Positions 7,155-48,806 of a DNA stretch of 49,062 nucleotides are shown here, piece by piece (position 1 is the first letter of the stretch; every line of letters starts with the position of its first letter). The stretch spans positions 1 through 49,062 of the forward strand of contig JBFEPE010000005.1 in assembly GCA_041550235.1 (NCBI GenBank), given 5' to 3'. The translations under genes and the position numbers were made by a program. The notes under the pieces were generated by a model. It was not told where the DNA came from and ran no database searches. It saw only the letters and a list, made by a program, of their open reading frames with translations. This DNA is from Minisyncoccia bacterium. GTDB lineage: Bacteria; Patescibacteriota; Minisyncoccia; UBA6257; JAAZHW01.

Positions 7155-8150
7155 TTATTTTTTGAAAATATGCTCGCGATGATACTTGAGATATCCTCTT
7201 CTTTTTTCAATTTGAGGAATAACAAATTTTTTACCATGTGCCAAATTTAATTTCTTTATGTTGAGAGGTGAAATATATGGGGAAATTAAAATAGACCCAT
7301 CATTTTCAAATGTAATAAATCCTTGATCAAAAAGTTTGTCATAGGTAGGAGTTAAAATAATTCCATTATTATGATCAATTTTTTCCTTATCGCTTGATAC
7401 ACTCCATGGCTTAATATGACTCGCCATAAGAATTCGCTCATCATTAACTCTTGTAATAATGCACTCCGAAGACTCTTCAAGTAATCTTTGCCTATATCCA
7501 CCCTGCCCAATTCTTGCCTTAACCAATTGCTCTTTTTCTTGTTTTGACAATTTTTTTTCTTCAATAGATTTTTCAATCTGCCTTTCTTTTGCCGGATGGT
7601 AATATGGATTAAATGAATAACTTAATAATGGTCTAAAAAGAAAATAAATATTATTGCTGGTATTTTTTATCTTTAAAATTGAGACATTAGAAATAATTGG
7701 GAGCATAATATTTCTGAAATATTCCCTGAAAATATCATCATATGAACGAATAAAATATCGCGATTTATCTTTTTCGCCAATAGCCCTTTCAAAAGAAAAA
7801 TATTCTCTATTTGATAAATTTTGAAGTTCAGAATAATAACCCCGCCAGTCACCTGATATATCTTTTTGATATTTCTGCTCCTGCTGTTCATATTCAAATT
7901 TTGAGTCATTAAGATAATTTTCTAAATCTTTTTTTAAGAAAAACCCCTCACTTTTAAAATCATTGAAAAAATCATCGAAATCCATAGTCTTTTGAGACCC
8001 AACATACAAACGAGCCTCACCACTACCACGACCAATTTTATTTTTCTTAACAAACGAATCAACGATTGGGATATTATCAATCTCATCAATTACTTCAAAT
8101 ATTTCATTATCAATCTCTATTAAATTTTTTGTGTCATCAGCCATATTCAT
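7155..8150 (-). CDS. HNH endonuclease (putative restriction enzyme)
   Basis: C-terminal RIGQG...C.IT...ASHIKPW...NGIILTPTYDKLFD HNH signature; adjacent to a methyltransferase. Confidence 0.85.
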   Translation of the reverse strand: MNMADDTKNLIEIDNEIFEVIDEIDNIPIVDSFVKKNKIGRGSGEARLYVGSQKTMDFDDFFNDFKSEGFFLKKDLENYLNDSKFEYEQQEQKYQKDISGDWRGYYSELQNLSNREYFSFERAIGEKDKSRYFIRSYDDIFREYFRNIMLPIISNVSILKIKNTSNNIYFLFRPLLSYSFNPYYHPAKERQIEKSIEEKKLSKQEKEQLVKARIGQGGYRQRLLEESSECIITRVNDERILMASHIKPWSVSSDKEKIDHNNGIILTPTYDKLFDQGFITFENDGSILISPYISPLNIKKLNLAHGKKFVIPQIEKRRGYLKYHREHIFKK

Positions 8151-8161
8151 AAATAATATAA

Positions 8162-9232
8162 TTATTTAATACCCATGCTTCTTAAAATAGCCATAAAAAC
8201 ATTAACGACAATACTATTGCCCGCTTGTTTATACATCTGAGTGTCGCTCACAACAATTTTGAATCTATCATCAAAACCCATCAATCGTAAGCACTCACGA
8301 GGAGTTAATTTTCTTATTTTGCTTTTTCTTGTTATATAATTATCTACCCCAGCACGATGCATCTTTGCCATTGTCGCAAGAAGTGGGCGAGCAACAGCAA
8401 GATCTGTTTCGGGCTTACTATGAAAATTTTTTGTTCCGCTTGATAAAACATATCTCTCAACCTTATTTGATAAAAAATATTTTTCATCTACTCGTCCAGT
8501 CGGCTCAAAAACAAAATCACCATGCCAATTAAATTGCTGATTTGCTTTTTGGCAAAGCGCAATCTGCCCGTTAATTTGTGTGTATTTTTTATCTAAATTT
8601 TTTTGGCTAGTCACAAATTTTATTCCCTTTTCCGGAAGATAATATTTATTTTCAATAGCATCCTCTAATAAATCATGCATATCAATCTTCAATTCAACAG
8701 GGTCTGGAAATTTAAAATTTTTTTTATTCCTAAATCCAACCACAAAAAGACGTTCTCTATTTTGTGGTATCCCATAATCTTTCGCATTTAATATCTTATG
8801 AAAATAATTATAGCCTAATTCTTTAAATTTTTTTTCAATAGCACCCCATGTATTCCCACTATCATGACTTAATAATCCCTTTACATTTTCAAAAATGAAT
8901 ATCTTCGGTCTTATCTCATCAATAAGCCTAGCAAATTCATAAAACAAAGTGCCTCGAGAATCTTTAAACCCTCGTCTTTTCCCCACCATTGAAAATGACT
9001 GACAGGGTGTTCCGCCAACAAATAAATCAATCTTACCTTTAAACTTCTTGCCATCTATATCCTGAACCAAATCAAACCAACGAGAATCATCGATGTCATA
9101 ATTGGCGAAAAAACTTTTTTTTACATGTGGATCGTTGTCGCAAGCAAAAATCAACTTGTGCTCAACCTTCATCCTCTTTAAAGCATGCTCTATTGCCCCG
9201 ATTCCACTAAATGCCGTTGCTAATTTCAACAT
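8162..9232 (-). CDS. DNA (cytosine-5)-methyltransferase
   Basis: FSGIG, GGTPCQSFS, ENVKG, QNRER, GNS motifs. Confidence 0.97.
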   Translation of the reverse strand: MLKLATAFSGIGAIEHALKRMKVEHKLIFACDNDPHVKKSFFANYDIDDSRWFDLVQDIDGKKFKGKIDLFVGGTPCQSFSMVGKRRGFKDSRGTLFYEFARLIDEIRPKIFIFENVKGLLSHDSGNTWGAIEKKFKELGYNYFHKILNAKDYGIPQNRERLFVVGFRNKKNFKFPDPVELKIDMHDLLEDAIENKYYLPEKGIKFVTSQKNLDKKYTQINGQIALCQKANQQFNWHGDFVFEPTGRVDEKYFLSNKVERYVLSSGTKNFHSKPETDLAVARPLLATMAKMHRAGVDNYITRKSKIRKLTPRECLRLMGFDDRFKIVVSDTQMYKQAGNSIVVNVFMAILRSMGIK

Positions 9233-9346: not shown

Positions 9347-9403
9347 GTTAGGTTTGGGGGAACAAATACCCCGATGATACAAACAAAAATAGGAGGTGTT
9401 ATT

Positions 9404-10900
9404 ATGACCAATAAAGAGGCATTGAAAAAATTTCTTGAAGCAGTTAATAAGGACAATTGTTTTGAGGCGAAAGAACTATCATTAAAAATACCAGTTAATA
9501 ATCTCGATTGTGAAGTTTTGATTGGGTTCCTAGAATCGGATAACCCAATAATACGCGATATGGTGAAAGAACTTCTTTCAAAAATACCAGTTAATAATCT
9601 CGATTGTGAAGTTTTGATTGGGTTCCTAGAATCGGACAACCTAATAATCTGCGATATGATGAGAGAACTTCTCCTAATCCATTTCCCTGAAAAACTGAAT
9701 ATTGAAACCTTAATCAGTTTTATAGAATCAAACGATTCGAATATTCGCGATAAGGCAAGTGGGCTTCTGTTAAAAATTCCGTCTAAAGAACTGAATCCTG
9801 AAACCTTAATCAGTTTTCTAAAATCAGACAATGCAAGAATCTGCGATATGATGAGAGAACTTCTTTCAAAAATACCAGTTAATAATCTTGATTGTGAGGT
9901 TTTGATTGGATTCCTAGAATCGGATAATTCAGGAATTTATGTTATGGCGAGACATCTCATTCATAAAGTAGTTAAAAAACTTAATTTTGAAACTTTGATT
10001 AATCATCTTAAATCAAGTAATCAAAGAGTTTGCAACAATATCAGAGTACTTCTTTCAAACCATTTTCCTGAAAAACTTGGTCTTGAAACCTTAATCAGTT
10101 TTCTAGAAGAATCAAGCGATTCAGATGTTCTTGATAAGGCAGTGGAAATTATTAAAAAGATCCCGCCTAAAAAACTTGATCCTGAGAAATTAATCAATTT
10201 TCTAAAATCGAGTTATTTAATAGTTTTCGGCATAACAGAGGAACTCCTTTTAAAAGTCCCGCCTAAAAAACTTGATCCTGAGAAATTAATCAATTTTATA
10301 AAGTTAAACGATTCAAATGTTTGTGATGTAGTTAAGGAGATTCTTTTAAACCATTTCCCTGAAAAACTGGATATTGAAACCTTAATCAGTTTTCTAAAAT
10401 CAGATGATTCGGATGTTCGCGATAAAACTAGGTGTATTCTTTTAAATAATTTCCCTGAAAAACTGGATGTTGAAACTTTAATCAGTTTTCTAGAGTCAAG
10501 CAATTCGGGCATTCAGGATAAGGCAAGAGGGCTTCTCTTAAAGATTCCATCTGAAAAACTGGATGTTGAAACTTTAATCAGTTTTCTAAAATCAGATAAT
10601 GCAAGAATCTGCGATATGATGAGAGAACTTCTCCTAATCCATTTTCCTGAAAAACTGGATATTGAAACTTTAATCAGTTTTCTAGAGTCAAGCAATTCGG
10701 GTATTCAAGATAAGGCAAGAAGACTTCTCTTAAAGATTCCGTCTAAAAAACTGAATCCTGAAACCTTAATCAGTTTTCTAAAATCAGAAAATTCAAAAGT
10801 TCGCGATACGGTGAAAGAACTTTTGAAAAAAATTAAAAAAAAGACTGATTTAGAAAAAATGTTTAAGAAATGCTTCCCCTATACATATACAAAAAATTGA
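9404..10900 (+). CDS. Tandem-repeat alpha-solenoid (HEAT-like) protein, 14 units of about 32 aa
   Basis: KIP/HFPxKLxxETLISFLxSxxxxIxDxxxxLL units with 96-bp DNA periodicity; AGGAGG SD before ATG 9404. Confidence 0.85.
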   Translation: MTNKEALKKFLEAVNKDNCFEAKELSLKIPVNNLDCEVLIGFLESDNPIIRDMVKELLSKIPVNNLDCEVLIGFLESDNLIICDMMRELLLIHFPEKLNIETLISFIESNDSNIRDKASGLLLKIPSKELNPETLISFLKSDNARICDMMRELLSKIPVNNLDCEVLIGFLESDNSGIYVMARHLIHKVVKKLNFETLINHLKSSNQRVCNNIRVLLSNHFPEKLGLETLISFLEESSDSDVLDKAVEIIKKIPPKKLDPEKLINFLKSSYLIVFGITEELLLKVPPKKLDPEKLINFIKLNDSNVCDVVKEILLNHFPEKLDIETLISFLKSDDSDVRDKTRCILLNNFPEKLDVETLISFLESSNSGIQDKARGLLLKIPSEKLDVETLISFLKSDNARICDMMRELLLIHFPEKLDIETLISFLESSNSGIQDKARRLLLKIPSKKLNPETLISFLKSENSKVRDTVKELLKKIKKKTDLEKMFKKCFPYTYTKN

Positions 10901-40482: not shown

Positions 40483-40579
40483 AAAGTTTGTTAATTTTTT
40501 AGATTCATTTAATTATCAATAGAGTTTTCTATTGACTTATGAGATTGATTAAGCGAGAATATATGTGGAGGTGATTAAG

Positions 40580-41005
40580 ATGAGCAATAAAGATGGCAAG
40601 AAAGATAAGAAAGTTGATGTTAATAAAAATGGTGGCAAAGGCATTAAGGGTGCTGGTGTTAAAAAAGATGGCGAGAAGCCGGGCGGATTAACTCCGGCTA
40701 ATATAAAAAAAATAAAAAGAGAGTTGGATAAAGCAATAAAAGAATCAAGAAATAAACCATTTGTAATAAAGGGGGGGGGAATTGAAGAATGGGTGGGGGA
40801 AATTGAGGACACTGGTTTTAATTGTTCTTATTGTGAAAAAGAACACGGAACTAAAGAAAGAATAGTAAGAGAGGAAGAGAAAAAAGATGTGAAAATAAAT
40901 CTTTATGGAGGAGAACCAAAGTCTGAAATAATCCTTGGTCACCCGCACTGTATAAGGTGCGGCACAGTTTTTCATTTAAAAACATTGGAAAGAAGGAAAA
41001 AATAA
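40580..41005 (+). CDS. Orphan protein with Lys/Gly-rich N-terminus and CxxC...CxxC zinc ribbon
   Basis: CSYC and CIRC; GGAGGTGAT SD, TTGACT at 40532, terminator at 41031-41064. Confidence 0.7.
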   Translation: MSNKDGKKDKKVDVNKNGGKGIKGAGVKKDGEKPGGLTPANIKKIKRELDKAIKESRNKPFVIKGGGIEEWVGEIEDTGFNCSYCEKEHGTKERIVREEEKKDVKINLYGGEPKSEIILGHPHCIRCGTVFHLKTLERRKK

Positions 41006-41106: not shown

Positions 41107-41133
41107 TTAGCACTCTATCTAATCGAGTGCTAA
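41107..41133. promoter_or_regulatory. CIRCE operator (HrcA binding site)
   Basis: Perfect TTAGCACTC-N9-GAGTGCTAA just downstream of TTGACT-N16-TAAACT. Confidence 0.95.
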
Positions 41134-41197: not shown

Positions 41198-41485
41198 ATG
41201 GAAATTAAACCATTATCAAATAATGTCGTAATTGAGCCGATTGAAGAGGCAACAACAACGGCATCAGGCATCGTCTTGCCTGACACAGCAGAAAAAGACA
41301 AGCCCCAAAAAGGAAAAATAGTTTCTGTTGGTCCCGGAAAAATGAGCGATGGACAAAGAATTCCTATGGAAATAAAGGTTGGGGATAAGGTAATTTTTGA
41401 AAGATATAGTCCTTCAAAAATAAAGATTAATGGCGATGAATATTTGCTAATTTCAGAAAGCGATATTCTTGCGATAATTGATTAG
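41198..41485 (+). CDS. groES: Co-chaperonin GroES
   Basis: IKPL, TASGIVLPDTA, VGPGK, ESDILA. Confidence 0.98.
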   Translation: MEIKPLSNNVVIEPIEEATTTASGIVLPDTAEKDKPQKGKIVSVGPGKMSDGQRIPMEIKVGDKVIFERYSPSKIKINGDEYLLISESDILAIID

Positions 41486-41617: not shown

Positions 41618-43309
<1,692 letters not shown>

Positions 43310-43319
43310 TTACCTTCTT

Positions 43320-43350
43320 TAAACTCCTGATTTCATTCAGGAGTTTTTGT
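43320..43350 (+). terminator. groESL terminator
   Basis: AAACTCCTGA-TTTCAT-TCAGGAGTTTTT. Confidence 0.75.
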
Positions 43351-43461
43351 TTGTTTTGAAATAATTTGTTTTGAAATGATAAATGGAAATAAAAAGGAAG
43401 CACAGCGATTTTTTGTTATCGTCGCCATGCCCCATAAAATAAAAAATATATAATGCCTTCG

Positions 43462-43725
43462 TCAATAACCCTCTCCATGGAAATAATCATTATTTAAAAA
43501 TTTTGCAAATTTAGTTATTTTTAAGTGGGCAATATTTAATTTGGAGTGTTTTTTTATTTTCCCCAATAAATTATCTGCCCCCTCTTTTGATAAGAAAATT
43601 TTGATTTCTTCAATGTTGGTTATATTCTTAATAAATAGCACAAAAGAAATTACTTTTCCTTTATATCCAGCAAAAACTAATTTTGTTTTTGTGTCTATAA
43701 TAATAAATTCTGTTTTTCCTGCCAT
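43462..43725 (-). CDS. Orphan hypothetical protein (87 aa)
   Basis: AGGAGG SD before ATG 43725; promoter shares an 18-bp core with its neighbours. Confidence 0.65.
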   Translation of the reverse strand: MAGKTEFIIIDTKTKLVFAGYKGKVISFVLFIKNITNIEEIKIFLSKEGADNLLGKIKKHSKLNIAHLKITKFAKFLNNDYFHGEGY

Positions 43726-43936
43726 AATCCCTCCTGATATTTTATTTTTCAATATTAAAAATCTTTTGACTGCGAATTATCTTATAATACCAACCAAGAC
43801 TTGTCAATATTTTAGTCTTATCCAATACAAGATAAGTGCGATATCTGGGGGATGTTTGATGTGCTTAATCAAGATAATCCTCGCAATGAATTGTGGCGAT
43901 TTATTGCATGGAAATTTAGTGCGGGGGAATTTGGTA

Positions 43937-44002
43937 ATTAGAAATAAAAAAATACTCCCCAACAAGACATTTCGCAATATCTTGTTGGGGGCTTTATGCT
44001 GA
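43937..44002 (-). terminator. Cassette terminator module, copy 1
   Basis: Near-identical to 45169-45233; long hairpin followed on the minus strand by TTTTTTTATT. Confidence 0.8.
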
Positions 44003-44003
44003 T

Positions 44004-44654
44004 TTACTTTTTCTCTTCTTCTTTTTTTTTCAAAGACATCCAAGTTTTTTCGGCATTACAATTGATGCCCTTCAAAGATAAGTATCTTTTAAATACTCTT
44101 TTTCTAACGATTGCCTTATTGTCATGATGATGATAGTCCGGGAGAATTTCAATGCGGAGAAAAACATCTTCTATTTTTTCATCATCAACCCCCATGTCTT
44201 CTATTGAGGATGTAGGGATAAGATCATAAATTCTTCTTGCGAATATCGGATCAAATATACTCGTGCTTTCTAAAGACATGCGGGACAAATCTTTTATTTT
44301 TAATTTGCCGAGAGCATCATCCTTACAAAGTAGATGGTATCCTTTATCTAATAAGGCATCATGTATGTCTCCTTTCTCAGATTTTCCGAATCTGTAATGC
44401 CCGCATTTTTTTTCTTGGAAAACATCAACAAAAGTATTCCAATCTTGAATATCTTCAATTTCCTTTAAGATATTCTTCTTGATTTTTTCCTCAGCCTCTG
44501 TCCATGCGAGGAAAAACATAAAAAGATTTTCAATCTTATTGTTTTCTGCTAAAAAAGATTCCATCGAGTTTTCGATGCCCGTTCTTAGAGAGTATAGATC
44601 TTTGGATGACAAATTTTCTGTCATTTTTCTTAAATCTTGTTCAAATACTTTCAT
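44004..44654 (-). CDS. Orphan hypothetical protein (216 aa)
   Basis: AGGAGGTTTAAA-ATG; flanked by the shared promoter and terminator modules. Confidence 0.75.
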   Translation of the reverse strand: MKVFEQDLRKMTENLSSKDLYSLRTGIENSMESFLAENNKIENLFMFFLAWTEAEEKIKKNILKEIEDIQDWNTFVDVFQEKKCGHYRFGKSEKGDIHDALLDKGYHLLCKDDALGKLKIKDLSRMSLESTSIFDPIFARRIYDLIPTSSIEDMGVDDEKIEDVFLRIEILPDYHHHDNKAIVRKRVFKRYLSLKGINCNAEKTWMSLKKKEEEKK

Positions 44655-44760
44655 TTTAAACCTCCTTTTTTCTTATTTTAATGATTTTTTAAATTTTTAA
44701 ATTTGGATAATTCCGATTTTTACATTATCACGATAATCAAGACTTGTCAATATTTATGGT

Positions 44761-44790
44761 TTATAAATAAATATCTTTGCGGTTGCCTAT
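44761..44790 (-). pseudogene. Possible C-terminal relic of a RelE-like toxin (IGNRKDIYL*)
   Basis: Reads I-G-N-R-K-D-I-Y-L-stop overlapping the stop of the antitoxin-like ORF. Confidence 0.4.
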
Positions 44791-45002
44791 TTTGATAGTC
44801 TTAATAATTTCAAAAAATCTTTGCTATTAGTAAAGGCATAATCTCCCTTTTGTTTTGATGCCTTTGCCACATCTCTAATGAATTTAGGATTATATTCTCC
44901 TTCACTATCTTTTTCTATCGCCATACTTAATAATAGAGACCTTAAATTAACAACCTCTTTTGTTAATATATTTAATTTTTTTTCCACTGCTTTTATAGAC
45001 AT
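44787..45002 (-). CDS. Small putative antitoxin-like protein
   Basis: 71 aa; D.EGEY.P.F motif and F....DFLK.L tail resembling small type II antitoxins; no SD. Confidence 0.5.
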   Translation of the reverse strand: MSIKAVEKKLNILTKEVVNLRSLLLSMAIEKDSEGEYNPKFIRDVAKASKQKGDYAFTNSKDFLKLLRLSK

Positions 45003-45027
45003 AATTTTTTTAATAATAGGTGTCGCT

Positions 45028-45111
45028 ATCCCCCGCCTCGCCCTTGGCGAGGCGGGGGATTTAAAATAATATCATTACTATCCCTACCCCGCCTTCGGCG
45101 GGGTGGGGATA
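45028..45111. repeat. Two GC-rich hairpins
   Basis: ATCCCCCGCCTCGCC-CTT-GGCGAGGCGGGGGAT and ATCCCTACCCCGCC-TTC-GGCGGGGTGGGGAT. Confidence 0.7.
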
Positions 45112-45168
45112 CCTTGTAGTTTAGCTTATTGAGTGTATTATAACCTAATCAAAAAATATCTCAAAGTG

Positions 45169-45233
45169 ATTAGAAATAAAAAAATACTCCCCAGCAGGAC
45201 ACTTCGCAATGTCTTGTTGGGGGGTTTTGCTGA
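45169..45233 (-). terminator. Cassette terminator module, copy 2
   Basis: Near-identical to 43937-44002. Confidence 0.8.
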
Positions 45234-45249
45234 ATAATCATTTTGACTT

Positions 45250-46005
45250 TCATTTTACAAGAAAGTGAAGAAAGTGATTGATTATTTTGAAATATGGCTT
45301 CAGGGGCATTATTCTTTTCTTGATACCAATCTCTTTCTTGCCCTCTTTTGTTTGGAGGTATTTGAGTCTTTCGCTCGTTTCTTTTTTCTGTCTTTCAACA
45401 AGAGAAAGAGAAATACTCGCTATTTTAGTTGTATTAAATCTATCCGGAAATCTTTCGCTGTTATGAATTCTCCTACCATCAAGATAAAACCATTCATAAT
45501 CTCGAATATTTATGGCATCAAAAAATAATAAAACTCCTTGATTTCCTTCAGGGTCAATGTAGAAAAAACCATTCTCTTCATGAAACTTTTTTTCATCTCC
45601 TCTACAATATCTACAAGTATGAATCTTGGGGCAATTCTGTTCTTCCCCTATCTTTCTCAACTCATTGGTTATTTCTTCTACATCCTTTCTTGGAATGTCA
45701 TTATTTGACTGATGGTGTTCAAAATTCGACAAGAGGGCGATTGAGAAATTCCTCTTCTCTCTTTCTAATAAAAGAGTTTTTAAAAGATTCAAGCCGTTAA
45801 AAGAACTTGGTTTTTGCCCTTTATAAAAGGGGATTTCCAAGTCTATAATCACAATATCCGGATGTGATTCCTTAAATTTTTTCAAACATCCAGAGCCATT
45901 TGAGGAATAAATGACATTGGCATTAGTTAAACTCCTTAATTCCCATTTTGTATGACTTCTTTGGATAAGGGAATCGTCGCATATCAAAATTGTTACATCT
46001 TTCAT
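45250..46005 (-). CDS. Atypical response-regulator receiver protein with a large insertion or unknown C-terminal region
   Basis: ILICDDS, PDIVIIDLEIP, LLS; a KP motif appears only near the C-terminus. Confidence 0.7.
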   Translation of the reverse strand: MKDVTILICDDSLIQRSHTKWELRSLTNANVIYSSNGSGCLKKFKESHPDIVIIDLEIPFYKGQKPSSFNGLNLLKTLLLEREKRNFSIALLSNFEHHQSNNDIPRKDVEEITNELRKIGEEQNCPKIHTCRYCRGDEKKFHEENGFFYIDPEGNQGVLLFFDAINIRDYEWFYLDGRRIHNSERFPDRFNTTKIASISLSLVERQKKETSERLKYLQTKEGKKEIGIKKRIMPLKPYFKIINHFLHFLVK

Positions 46006-46088
46006 TTTAAACCTCCTATTTTTTATTTTTAAATTTGGATAATTTCCGCCCTTATTATATCACGATAATCAAGACTTGTCAATATTTA
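46006..46088 (-). promoter_or_regulatory. Cassette promoter/5'UTR module shared with 44655-44756 and 43795-43812
   Basis: 30-bp exact match 46059-46088 = 44727-44756 containing TTGACA; shared AATTATCCAAATTTAAAAA and GGAGGTTTAAAATGAA. Confidence 0.8.
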
Positions 46089-46118
46089 CAATTTATATTA
46101 TAAATATATGATATAGAT

Positions 46119-48806
46119 ATGTATAATAAATTTACAATGAAAGCACAGGAGGCGATACAGAATGCACAAGATATCGCTTCCTCAAAAAATCAAGGAGAAT
46201 TGAAATCAGTTCATCTTCTTTTTTCATTGATAACACAGGGAGACGGAATGATTCCCCAAATATTATCAGAAATGAATATAGACATTGCTAAATTATCAGC
46301 TGACTTGGAGGTAGAAATAAATCGCCAACCAAGACTATTTGTCGCCAGTGCCAATATAGGGCAACTTTACTTATCAGCAGAATTGATAAAGATATTAGAC
46401 AATGCAACAAAGGAATCAGCCAGACTAAAAGACGAATATATTTCTTGCGAGCACCTATTTTTAGCAATTGTTTCTCATTCAGATGATTTAAGCCAGATAA
46501 TAAAGAGACATAATATCAAGAGAGACGAGGTTTTCAAAAAAATAGAGAAAATGAGAGGTGGACAAAGAATAGTAGATGAAACACCGGAGGCAAAGTTTAG
46601 AGTACTGGAAAAATATAGCCATAATTTAACAAACAAGGCGAAGGATAAAAAATTAGATCCAGTTATTGGCAGGGACGAGGAATTAAGAAGAGTAATTCAA
46701 ATAATATCAAGAAGAACAAAAAATAACCCAATTCTTATTGGGGAGCCGGGAACAGGGAAGACGGCGATTGTTGAGGGATTAGCACAAAAAATTGTTTCAG
46801 GAGATGTGCCAGAATCATTAAAAGACAAAGAAGTCCTCTCACTTGATTTGGCAGGTATGGTTGCAGGAACAAAATTCAGAGGAGAATTTGAGGACCGCTT
46901 GAAATCATTTATTAAAGAAATACAAAAAGCAGAAGGAAAATATATTTTGTTCATTGATGAAATTCATACCATTATTGGAGCAGGTAGTGCCGAAGGGGCA
47001 ATTGATGCCGCCAATGTCTTGAAGCCGGCATTAGCAAGGGGAGAATTGAAAGCCATCGGGGCAACAACTTTGAAAGAATATCAAAAATATTTAGAAAGGG
47101 ATATGGCATTGGAAAGAAGATTCCAACCAGTTTTAGTTGAGGAGCCAACACCAAAGCATGCTATAGCAATTCTTAGGGGATTGAAAGAAAGATATGAAAA
47201 TCATCATGGAATAAGAATTTCCGATAGCGCAATTGTAGCGGCCGTTTCTTTGTCGTCGCGATATATTTCAGATAGGTTTTTGCCCGACAAGGCGGTTGAT
47301 TTAATAGACGAGGCCGCATCAGCGATGAGATTAGAAATGGATAGTTTGCCCGCCGATTTAGAGGAGGCAAAGCAGAATATTTTGAATTTAGAAATAGAAA
47401 AAGAAGCCATCAAAAAAGAAAAGAGTGAAATGGCAAAAAATCGATTGATAGAAATTGAAAGAGATTTGAAGGTTTTGAAATTGAACCAAGAAAAGGAAAT
47501 GAAAAAAAGAAATAAAGCAAAAGAAAAGGTTCAAGCAATTTATGATTTTAAAAAGGAAATAGAAGAGTTAAAGGCCAAGGCGGAAAAAGCGCAATTTGAT
47601 GGGGAATTAGAATTGGCGAGCAAATTGCTTTATGGTCAAATTCCAGAGAAAGAATCATTACTCAAAAAAGCCGAGCAGAAATTGAGTAAGGGCAAAAAAG
47701 ATAAGGCAATGATGAGCGAGGAAGTGGGTGAAGAAGAAATTGCAAAAATTGTTTCAAGATGGACGGGCATCCCTGTTTCTAAAATGCTTCAAAGCGAGGC
47801 AGAAAAACTATCAAATATGGAGGATATTCTGTCTAATAGGGTGATAGGGCAGAAGACTGCAATATCTGCTGTGAGTGATGCCGTTCGTCGTGCAAGGGCG
47901 GGCATATCAGAGGATGATAGACCAATTGGATCATTTATGTTTTTAGGTCCTACGGGAGTAGGAAAAACTGAATTAGCCAAAGCAATGGCAGTTCATTTAT
48001 TCAATGATGAGAAGGCAATTATTAGAATTGATATGTCGGAATATATGGAGCAGCACTCTGTTTCAAAGATGATTGGCTCGCCTCCGGGTTATGTTGGGTA
48101 TGATGAGGGAGGGCAACTCACTGAAATGGTGAGGCATAGACCATATAGTTTGGTTTTGTTTGATGAGATAGAGAAGGCCCATCCGGAGGTGTTCAATGTT
48201 TTGTTACAAATTTTGGATGAGGGGCAATTAAAAGATGCCAAGGGGCGAAAGGTTAATTTCAGAAATACGATAATTATTATGACATCAAATGCGGGAAGTG
48301 AGTATATTAAGGAAATGTCTGATTTGGGATTTAGAAATTATAAGAATGATAGCGAGAAATTTGAGATTGAATCAAGTAATACAAAGGGCAAGATAATGGA
48401 TGCTTTGAAGGATAATTTCAAGCCAGAATTTTTGAATAGAATTGATGAGATTATTATATTTAATCCTCTAAGCAAGGATGATATATCATTGATTTGTGAA
48501 AATCAGTTTGATTTGATTAAGGAAAGATTGTTAAAGAAGGGAATTGAGATAGAATTGAGCAATGAGGCGAAAAAATATTTCTCTGAGAATGGATATAGTC
48601 AGGAATATGGGGCAAGAGAATTAAAGAGGTTGATGCAGAGAGAGATATTGAATCCTTTGGCTCAAAAGATTGTTTCAAATGAGTTGAGGGCGAGTGATAG
48701 TATTTTAGTTTCCGTGAGGAATAATAAGATTGTTTTGGATAAGAATAGGGCTTCTTCAAGGTCTAATAAGAGTAGCGACAAAATCGCCTCTCCCGTTTCT
48801 GTTTAG
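46119..48806 (+). CDS. clpB: ATP-dependent chaperone ClpB
   Basis: Two AAA+ modules ([16 protein letters not shown]), long middle coiled coil, GSPPGYVGY. Confidence 0.95.

Follow-up and report, generated by a model that had tools for sequence, protein, structure and literature searches.

The genes groEL and clpB of a Minisyncoccia bacterium (assembly GCA_041550235.1, contig JBFEPE010000005.1) are separated by a gap of 2.8 kb, from the end of groEL at 43309 to the start of clpB at 46119, which contains four minus-strand open reading frames (ORFs): ORF96, ORF216, ORF71 and ORF251. ORF96, ORF216 and ORF251 follow copies of a common promoter sequence, and the latter two are enclosed, from promoter to terminator, by nearly identical regulatory frames around unrelated coding parts. 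The window, that is, the whole stretch of 49,062 nucleotides analyzed here, corresponds to the complete contig C5 of a 760-kb genome (41 contigs, 33% GC, 97% complete), hereafter G000. It belongs to the core chromosome, with the genes dnaA, dnaN, tuf, rpsJ, polA, pgk, groES/groEL and clpB, of which groES, groEL and clpB were named from their translations. Each unit in the gap has its own predicted promoter.

An initial annotation of this DNA had described unrelated ORFs inside shared promoter and terminator modules, and comparison by BLAST with the whole genome of G000 confirmed its main observations. The identical promoter of 30 bp reported before ORF216 and ORF251 extends to 31/31 nt (44726-44756 and 46058-46088; E 1.1e-11), the 19-bp block of the untranslated region to 20/20 nt (44693-44712 and 46025-46044), and the identity across the start is that of the 19-nt stretch AGGAGGTTTAAAATGAAAG, comprising the ribosome-binding site (RBS) and start codon, with 19/19 positions the same in both units. 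Behind the two genes, the terminator repeat, previously put at about 65 bp, was recovered with 92.7% identity over 55 nt (51/55; 43937-43991 and 45169-45223; E 1.8e-16), or 90% over 62 nt. An 18-bp core, CAAGACTTGTCAATATTT, which represents the -35 region of the promoter, has a third copy before ORF96 at 43795-43812 (E 6.5e-4 against the genome), again as described. All units at the locus lie on the minus strand, in agreement with the common orientation noted before; on this strand the promoter module is AAATATTGACAAGTCTTGATTATCGTGATATAAT, and its core is also written as TATTGACAAGTCTTGAT. On the 5' side, the similarity of the ORF216 and ORF251 frames runs from about 25 nt upstream of the -35 box through the leader to AGGAGGTTTAAAATGAAAG and ends 7 nt into the coding part. 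On the 3' side it extends from the stop-codon region, where it stops towards the gene, through the hairpin and U-run to TCTAAT. No copy of the promoter and terminator modules was found outside the groEL-clpB locus in assembled G000.

A promoter scan predicted TTGACA-17-TATAAT with a TG extension (12/12) for ORF251 and TTGACA-17-TAAGAT (10/12) for ORF96. The copy before ORF216 has the same -35 and a weaker -10 (GATAAT/TAATGT), and it was not listed by the scan. Both terminators fold as a hairpin followed by a U-run (-25.4 kcal/mol, z -6.1; -18.7 kcal/mol, z -3.2); the hairpin in the 3' flank of ORF96 (-15.1 kcal/mol, z -1.2) is not significant. Judging from these consensus matches and computed folds, the modules are probably active promoters and terminators. 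None of the known RNA families reached its gathering score in the region 43200-46300.

The proteins encoded within the frames have no similarity to each other, as the initial annotation had noticed. When ORF216 and ORF251 were compared, the best BLASTP E value was 4.5, hhalign on the single sequences put the probability at 0.5%, and the coding parts had no nucleotide match that was colinear. ORF216 retrieved only itself among 5.8 billion clustered proteins (word-indexed search) and 1.84 billion representatives (phmmer), its best score in the ESM Atlas was 0.78, under the useful range, and it matched no Pfam, NCBIfam or PADLOC family. The receiver domain of ORF251 (PF00072, E 5e-7) is just over the cut-off; one homolog of this protein, P0003, was identified (80% identity), and the full-length protein was not found in 20 relatives. 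The third ORF can be kept as a gene preceded by the promoter core, although its length of 96 aa is doubtful, the likely start being ATG 43725 (87 aa), behind AGGAGGG, with TTG 43752 as the less likely one. The GC content of the cassettes (0.327-0.331) is not atypical compared with that of the genome (about 0.33). ORF71 shows 96% protein identity to its counterpart in the only congener available (see below), has distant homologs in two other members of the order and a weak match to DUF2683, below the cut-off. The features of the locus are collected in Table 1.

Table 1. Features of the groEL-clpB locus and of related elements in G000 (window positions, unless a contig is named; promoter and terminator roles are predicted).
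Feature	Position	Strand	Remarks
groES	41198-41485		CIRCE element upstream at 41107-41133
groEL	41657-43309	+	550 aa; left conserved flank; X3 contig spans groEL into ORF96
groEL intrinsic terminator, predicted	43321-43346	+	Terminator scan
Conserved 3' flank of slot 1 (ORF96)	43359-43461	-	Weak hairpin then U-run, possibly terminator
ORF96, slot 1 cargo	43462-43752	-	No known family
Promoter module copy 1 (predicted to drive ORF96)	43753-43821	-	18-bp core 43795-43812
943-bp present/absent unit	43795-44737	-	Spacer, terminator, ORF216, leader, promoter; 18-bp core as direct repeat at its bounds
Spacer within 943-bp unit	43822-43933	.	Piece 43849-43921 present in run X4; no repeat elsewhere in genome
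Terminator module copy 1 (predicted to end ORF216)	43934-44003	-	15-17-bp stem + U-run
ORF216, slot 2 cargo	44004-44654	-	Orphan gene; GC 0.327, genome-like
Promoter, leader, RBS module copy 2 (predicted to drive ORF216)	44655-44775	-	
ORF71	44787-45002	-	Small conserved gene outside the shared frames; not driven by shared promoter
Two GC-rich REP-like hairpins in ORF71 leader	45028-45111	.	Second one (45079-45111) absent in G001
Candidate ORF71 promoter	45137-45164	-	TTGAGA-16-TATAAT, 11/12; directly behind terminator copy 2
Terminator module copy 2 (predicted to end ORF251)	45166-45236	-	Kept in G001 at L011 8500-8563
ORF251, slot 3 cargo	45250-46005	-	N-terminal receiver (REC) domain, then C-terminal part with CxxC, unassigned
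Promoter, leader, RBS module copy 3 (predicted to drive ORF251)	46006-46108	-	Back to back with clpB start
clpB	46119-48806	+	895 aa; right conserved flank
Family B cargo 1	C1:62405-62695		96-aa ORF
Family B cargo 2	C7:4912-5838		308-aa membrane protein
Multi-copy repeat, examples of copies	C2:68776-69166, C3:47985-48402, C8:1-374, C34, C31:3139-3413, C21:2022-2347, C10:5521-5777, C19:1-281, C4:50659-50850		

In a DNA search of 60 relatives, long matches were found only in G001, a metagenome-assembled genome (MAG; 140 contigs, 92% complete) that is the only one of the same genus in the species-representative collection. Including G000, 6/61 genomes gave any match at E <= 0.001, and those of relatives other than G001 were short and leader-like. 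The G001 locus lies on contig C22, and there all three slots with a shared promoter are unlike those of G000, while the frames are kept; other DNA common to the two genomes is 87-99% identical. Three kinds of difference were observed. In slot 2, the 943-bp unit with ORF216 is absent from G001, and the ORF96 homolog is followed by a single promoter and then directly by ORF71. This promoter is chimeric, its -10 side being that of the ORF96 promoter and its upstream side that of the ORF216 promoter, and ORF71, the first GC-rich hairpin and the terminator module are retained with 87% identity over 493 nt.

Slot 3 of G001 has, in place of ORF251, a gene on the opposite strand for a 551-aa MORC-like GHKL ATPase (HATPase_c_3, E 1.7e-20; Morc6_S5, E 1.4e-6). 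Around it, the terminator module is 89% identical over 64 nt, and the promoter on the clpB side (46058-46113) is identical at 56/56 positions, as far as the contig extends. Beyond it, homology with the frame of G000 reaches into the leader, with the TATAAT of the minus-strand promoter deleted. The breakpoints of the replacement lie in the leader and just past the terminator. In slot 1 the gene remains and its coding part has diverged far more than its surroundings: the 3' flank is identical at 96/103 positions and leader plus promoter at 83/88, against 167/287 nt (58%) in the coding part, whose proteins share 42% identity over 50 residues only.

Further evidence came from assembled Logan contigs of four sequencing runs, X1 to X4, X1 being the source run and X3 belonging to a different study. 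A 796-nt contig of X3 contains groEL and the same ORF96 allele; over 717 nt it differs in 23 letters and has 18 gap letters. The joint in this contig passes from 43794 to 44738, skipping 943 positions, with 18 letters that fit both sides and one chimeric promoter kept. The X3 population is much closer to G000, and it shows the same 943-bp difference as G001; in both, the junction falls within the 18-bp promoter core, about 140 nt from the hairpin. In a contig of X4, an ORF216-type leader, followed as far as 44703, continues at 46036 in the clpB-side promoter, which makes a mosaic frame, and X2 contains pieces of an ORF251 homolog of roughly 90% identity. X2 also has an insert of 130 nt just before the clpB start, and G001 a hairpin insert of about 115-130 nt at the same place (contig C84, L018 1-125). 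The contigs of X2 to X4 do not cover the coding part of ORF216 and say nothing on its absence there. Those of X1 tile the window order with zero differences at a depth of 24-26, and break at the 31-bp repeat, as expected of a repeat.

A second family of frames (family B) is present on two other contigs of G000. Its promoter copies, C1:62289-62339 and C7:4815-4865, are 98% identical over 51 nt, and the genes behind them use the leader block and RBS also found at the groEL-clpB locus. The B terminator, GGCGGTTGG..AATCCAGCCGTC plus a U-run, for which folds were computed, occurs only twice in G000 at up to 4 edits, directly behind both B genes. The two encoded proteins are mutually unrelated and matched no family. 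Neither the B cassettes nor the patterns of the B promoter and B terminator were found in G001, where the flanks of these cassettes match at 93-99%. The frames at groEL-clpB (family A) comprise three promoters and two terminators, those of family B two and two, and a spacer next to the -35, AAGTYTTGAT, is common to the promoters of both families. On contig C7, a gene for a protein with an NYN domain (177 aa) and its upstream region (C7:4165-4808) have a second, internally deleted copy at C3:6672-6928, the two retained pieces being 99% and 93.5% identical.

It is fairly probable that the units described are self-contained expression cassettes that are gained, lost and replaced by homologous recombination within shared regulatory frames, and that the groEL-clpB gap constitutes a strain-variable array of slots. 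The initial annotation had offered, as one possibility, the replacement of coding parts in a fixed frame, and this is supported by the three slots that differ between G000 and G001 with their frames kept, as well as by the missing ORF216 unit of X3; the BLAST comparison of the modules that it had recommended located them nowhere else in G000 and at the same locus in G001. A cassette would consist of a sigma-70-type promoter, a short leader, a strong RBS, the ORF and an intrinsic terminator. Since the frames are repeated and conserved, they are proposed to act as homology arms and direct repeats. Recombination between two promoter copies would delete a whole cassette and leave one chimeric promoter, as in G001 and X3; running in reverse with a donor, circular or linear, it would insert a cassette. 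A pair of crossovers, one in the promoter or leader and the second near the terminator, might swap the cargo for DNA of a related strain, in slot 3 and perhaps in slot 1. The frame would let the newcomer be transcribed, translated and terminated, leaving groEL and clpB undisturbed.

The mechanism is presumably RecA-dependent homologous recombination, probably fed by natural transformation. ComEC, DprA and RecA are encoded in G000, and natural competence with homologous recombination has been demonstrated in Saccharibacteria, another group of Patescibacteria (PMC10633639). Terms such as gain, loss and swap express the presumed direction of each event. The two terminators of G000 differ at 5/58 core columns, and each differs from the G001 copy at 5 and 6, respectively; as they are about as unlike each other as they are unlike the G001 copy, the frame of ORF216 was not copied recently from that of ORF251.

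Several points weigh against this interpretation. Each event rests on one or two comparisons, the material being limited to a single congeneric genome and to Logan contigs of short length. The G001 locus lacks the groEL flank, its left neighbor being a gene for a PilB-like ATPase, and the contig of this fragmented MAG ends inside the promoter module. The array may also have had either of two histories: an old origin, followed by two losses of the cassette through deletion between repeats, or import of the cassette from a more distant donor with the same kind of frame. The B loci in G001 are rearranged and are not clean indels. Finally, no joint was found in X1 contigs, a result that says little, because contigs drop rare forms.

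The shared promoter could also be explained by co-regulation. It would then contain an operator for a transcription factor, such as a stress regulator acting also on clpB, with selection on the regulon keeping the frames and ordinary island turnover changing the cargo. This possibility is attractive because of the chaperone neighbors and of the 9-bp palindrome CAAGnCTTG at the -35, contained in the spacer common to families A and B; moreover, the module stands back to back with clpB and is fully conserved on that side in G001, and a metagenome contig of another organism (L015, GC 38%) has a promoter identical to it at 34/37 positions between unrelated genes. An operator, however, leaves the shared terminators, leaders and RBS and the breakpoints in the frames unexplained. 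The heat-shock signal of this genome is CIRCE, of which only two elements occur in G000 (at most one mismatch per arm), the one before groES and another at C4:47779-47805, before the hrcA-dnaK region, and HrcA is encoded. The promoter core, with up to two mismatches, is not found before other chaperone genes, TATTGACAAGTYTTGAT is present in 2/301 genomes of the order, both of this genus, and the hairpin insert of G001 and X2 parts the module from clpB. Co-regulation as the reason for the frames is thus unlikely. A more specific candidate, a stress-regulon operator in the form of a putative CtsR-like direct repeat in the -35/spacer region, was rejected: no CtsR domain was found in the genome, CIRCE/HrcA covers groESL and dnaK, and the motif was found only in the two genomes mentioned.

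Wider scans for the modules gave few matches. Among the species-representative genomes there were only the G001 record and one 20-nt match in an unrelated bacterium. The metagenome scan yielded three loci, two of them inside coding regions, thus by chance, and the third the look-alike promoter of L015 (5984-6020), whose best likeness is to the ORF216 promoter; it lies between divergent genes for a 145-aa protein and a Gmad2-domain protein, and shared ancestry, transfer or chance are all possible causes. A phage origin was considered and rejected, since the patterns of promoter A, promoter B and terminator A had zero matches in viral contigs (three scans). As for clpB itself, its ATG has no Shine-Dalgarno sequence, and a plus-strand TTTACA-16-TATGAT site ends at 46112, 7 nt before it (window 46085-46121), so the clpB mRNA may be leaderless or nearly so.

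The precise limits of the 943-bp indel might suggest instead a site-specific, strictly integron-like system, in which a recombinase of a kind that escapes recognition, encoded elsewhere, would act on the promoter core or on the terminator hairpin and move circular cassettes in and out. The indel is exact, bounded by the identical 18-bp repeat, and leaves one chimeric site, and the array is co-oriented. Yet no gene for a recombinase or integrase was detected in the 49-kb window by Pfam scans of 34 ORFs up to 40479 and of the ORFs of the locus (the spurious frame 43541-43999 was left out), which bears out the earlier statement that the window has no integrase. The breakpoints in G001, in the leader and just past the terminator, do not define a single site, and the new gene is inverted; the core is merely the -35 region of a promoter; and family B has a different terminator and a variant promoter. 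Identical repeats of 18-31 bp suffice for deletion, either RecA-dependent or by slippage. We consider such a system very unlikely.

According to another explanation, the three units would descend by old tandem duplication from one promoter-gene-terminator ancestor, the coding parts having drifted past recognition and the regulatory parts having been kept by selection or gene conversion. The units are indeed tandem and co-oriented, the terminator copies, 7-10% diverged, are not recent, and the coding part of ORF96 evolves very fast relative to its flanks. Duplication nevertheless fails, because the coding parts have no protein or nucleotide similarity and because of the replacement in G001. Full identity gives way to no similarity at all less than 8 nt past the start codon, and likeness likewise ceases at the stop codon; the proteins are unlike in length and in domains, with a REC domain in ORF251 only, and the MORC-like gene in slot 3 of G001 and the dispersed B cassettes are left unexplained. 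Simple duplication of diverged paralogs, in modules that occur nowhere else, was the outcome that the initial annotation had named as contrary to its proposal; by sequence, the enclosed proteins are not detectable as paralogs, and the modules recur in G001, with family B on two other contigs. This origin appears highly improbable. That the presence or absence of units is a misassembly, caused by repeats that create chimeric joins in metagenome contigs, is scarcely credible. The breaks of the X1 contigs do coincide with the 31-bp repeat, the module is where the G001 contig stops, and both genomes are MAGs, but the same deletion junction was found in two independent data sets (G001 and X3, from different studies), the X1 contigs reproduce the window order at even depth, and each junction of the replaced segments has unique sequence to either side.

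The remainder of the window offers some additional observations. Directly upstream of the groES promoter there is a 146-aa, lysine-rich ORF with CxxC motifs (40565-41005), without confident family. A gene encoding an HNH endonuclease adjoins one for a C-5 cytosine methyltransferase (7158-9232), and the two are likely a restriction-modification pair. In the HEAT/Armadillo-repeat gene at 9374-10897, the DNA itself is strongly repeated in tandem (self-matches 9466-10834, 68-87%). Positions 1-182 belong to a repeat of about 150-390 nt with many copies, which is present at many contig ends of G000 and probably breaks the assembly.

Patescibacteria, or bacteria of the candidate phyla radiation (CPR), have tiny, streamlined genomes with many strain-specific orphan genes, whose entry, expression and turnover are poorly understood. 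At groEL-clpB, short modules may serve both as expression signal and as recombination arm, so that a gene dropped between them would be expressed at once and essential neighbors would remain unharmed. It can be tentatively proposed, as a possibility that we regard with considerable doubt, that Paceibacteria, and perhaps CPR bacteria more widely, possess dedicated "expression sockets". These would be small families of conserved promoter-leader-RBS and terminator modules, chiefly serving to capture, express and exchange fast-evolving orphan genes population-wide. In function they would match integrons without needing an integrase, relying on DNA uptake followed by homologous recombination, and would do in cells what the PeSL (promoter-early stem-loop) cassettes do in T4-type phages; the groEL-clpB array and family B would be instances of one general mechanism by which ultra-small bacteria turn over their accessory genome. 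If general, this would account for the movement of accessory genes in organisms poor in classical mobile elements, and would extend a mechanism of T4-type phages to cellular chromosomes. The genetics now being developed for Patescibacteria might also draw on the locus for ready-made native promoters and terminators and for neutral sites of insertion. In a limited literature search for such cassettes in Patescibacteria, nothing on the topic stood among the papers listed, and the pattern may have been published.

Promoter sequences shared by unrelated genes have been described before. Putative mobile promoters were defined as stretches of at least 50 nt with at least 80% identity that lie between -150 and -50 of non-homologous genes in one genome (Nijveen, Matus-Garcia and van Passel 2012, PMC3575422). 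Family B falls within this definition, its 51 nt of 98% identity being located at about -116 to -66 in one copy and -97 to -47 in the other, and family A is borderline, with 82% over 79 ungapped nt and about 49/61 positions inside -50 to -111. That survey covered only the region -150 to -50, and reported no matched terminators, leaders or RBS, nor presence or absence of the downstream gene (PMC3575422); in the present case the whole frame is common and the cargo varies.

Integrons resemble this locus in that exchangeable units of one gene each, all in the same orientation, form an array at a single place in the chromosome, and in this loose sense the "integron-like array" of the initial annotation can stand. 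The strict sense cannot, as no IntI or attC was found, the hairpins with U-runs fold as intrinsic terminators, every cassette comes with a predicted promoter, and the junction falls inside the promoter core.

A phage moron is an autonomous unit of promoter, ORF and terminator located between genes that are adjacent in related phages. Likewise, ORF216 has its own predicted promoter and terminator and is placed between two units that are adjacent in G001 and X3. It is not in a prophage, however, its base composition is not atypical, and morons are not defined by shared frames.

Saunders and Snyder are said to have described, in 2002, the minimal mobile elements of Neisseria, in which different genes occupy the space between the same conserved flanks. 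These elements are mentioned in PMC1538595. They share with the present locus the different genes between the same flanks, the lack of mobility genes and the competence genes in the lineage. Exchange of the Neisseria elements is presumed to proceed by homologous recombination in the flanks, and the same may apply here. In Neisseria, though, the flanks are conserved genes, whereas here the putative homology arms are regulatory modules of 60-120 bp that would also express the cargo, and the flank on the groEL side in G001 is not groEL.

The PeSL of T4-type phages would appear to be the closest described system, on the strength of this comparison. Comeau and colleagues reportedly dealt, in 2014, with PeSL as mobile regulatory cassettes. 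In earlier work, repeated promoter and stem-loop motifs adjoin orphan ORFs in the hyperplastic or variable regions of these phages (Arbiol et al. 2010, PMC2839356). A PeSL unites a strong sigma-70-like promoter with a terminator stem-loop and a Shine-Dalgarno sequence, a genome has about 50 copies, and mini-circles were shown; an ORFan located between two PeSLs in RB49 is represented by a single chimeric PeSL in phi1, and recombination between motifs was proposed as the cause (PMC2839356). A motif of promoter, stem-loop and Shine-Dalgarno sequence is repeated here as well, and terminator copy 2 is followed by the promoter-like site 45164-45137. Orphan or rare ORFs occupy a variable region (ORF216 without homolog, ORF251 with one, the B cargo without family), and all of them differ from G001. 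The indel is bounded by two motifs and the genomes without the ORF have a single chimeric one, as in G001 and X3, and an incoming gene would bring or find its own expression signals. Three of the five features listed for PeSL are present in this locus, which is not phage. PeSL are found in lytic phage genomes in large numbers and the frames described here form small families in a core cellular chromosome, where promoter and terminator stand apart, one module at either end of the gene. The system is not an integron, and is best described as probable modular shuffling of the PeSL or moron type in the chromosome of a cellular CPR bacterium.

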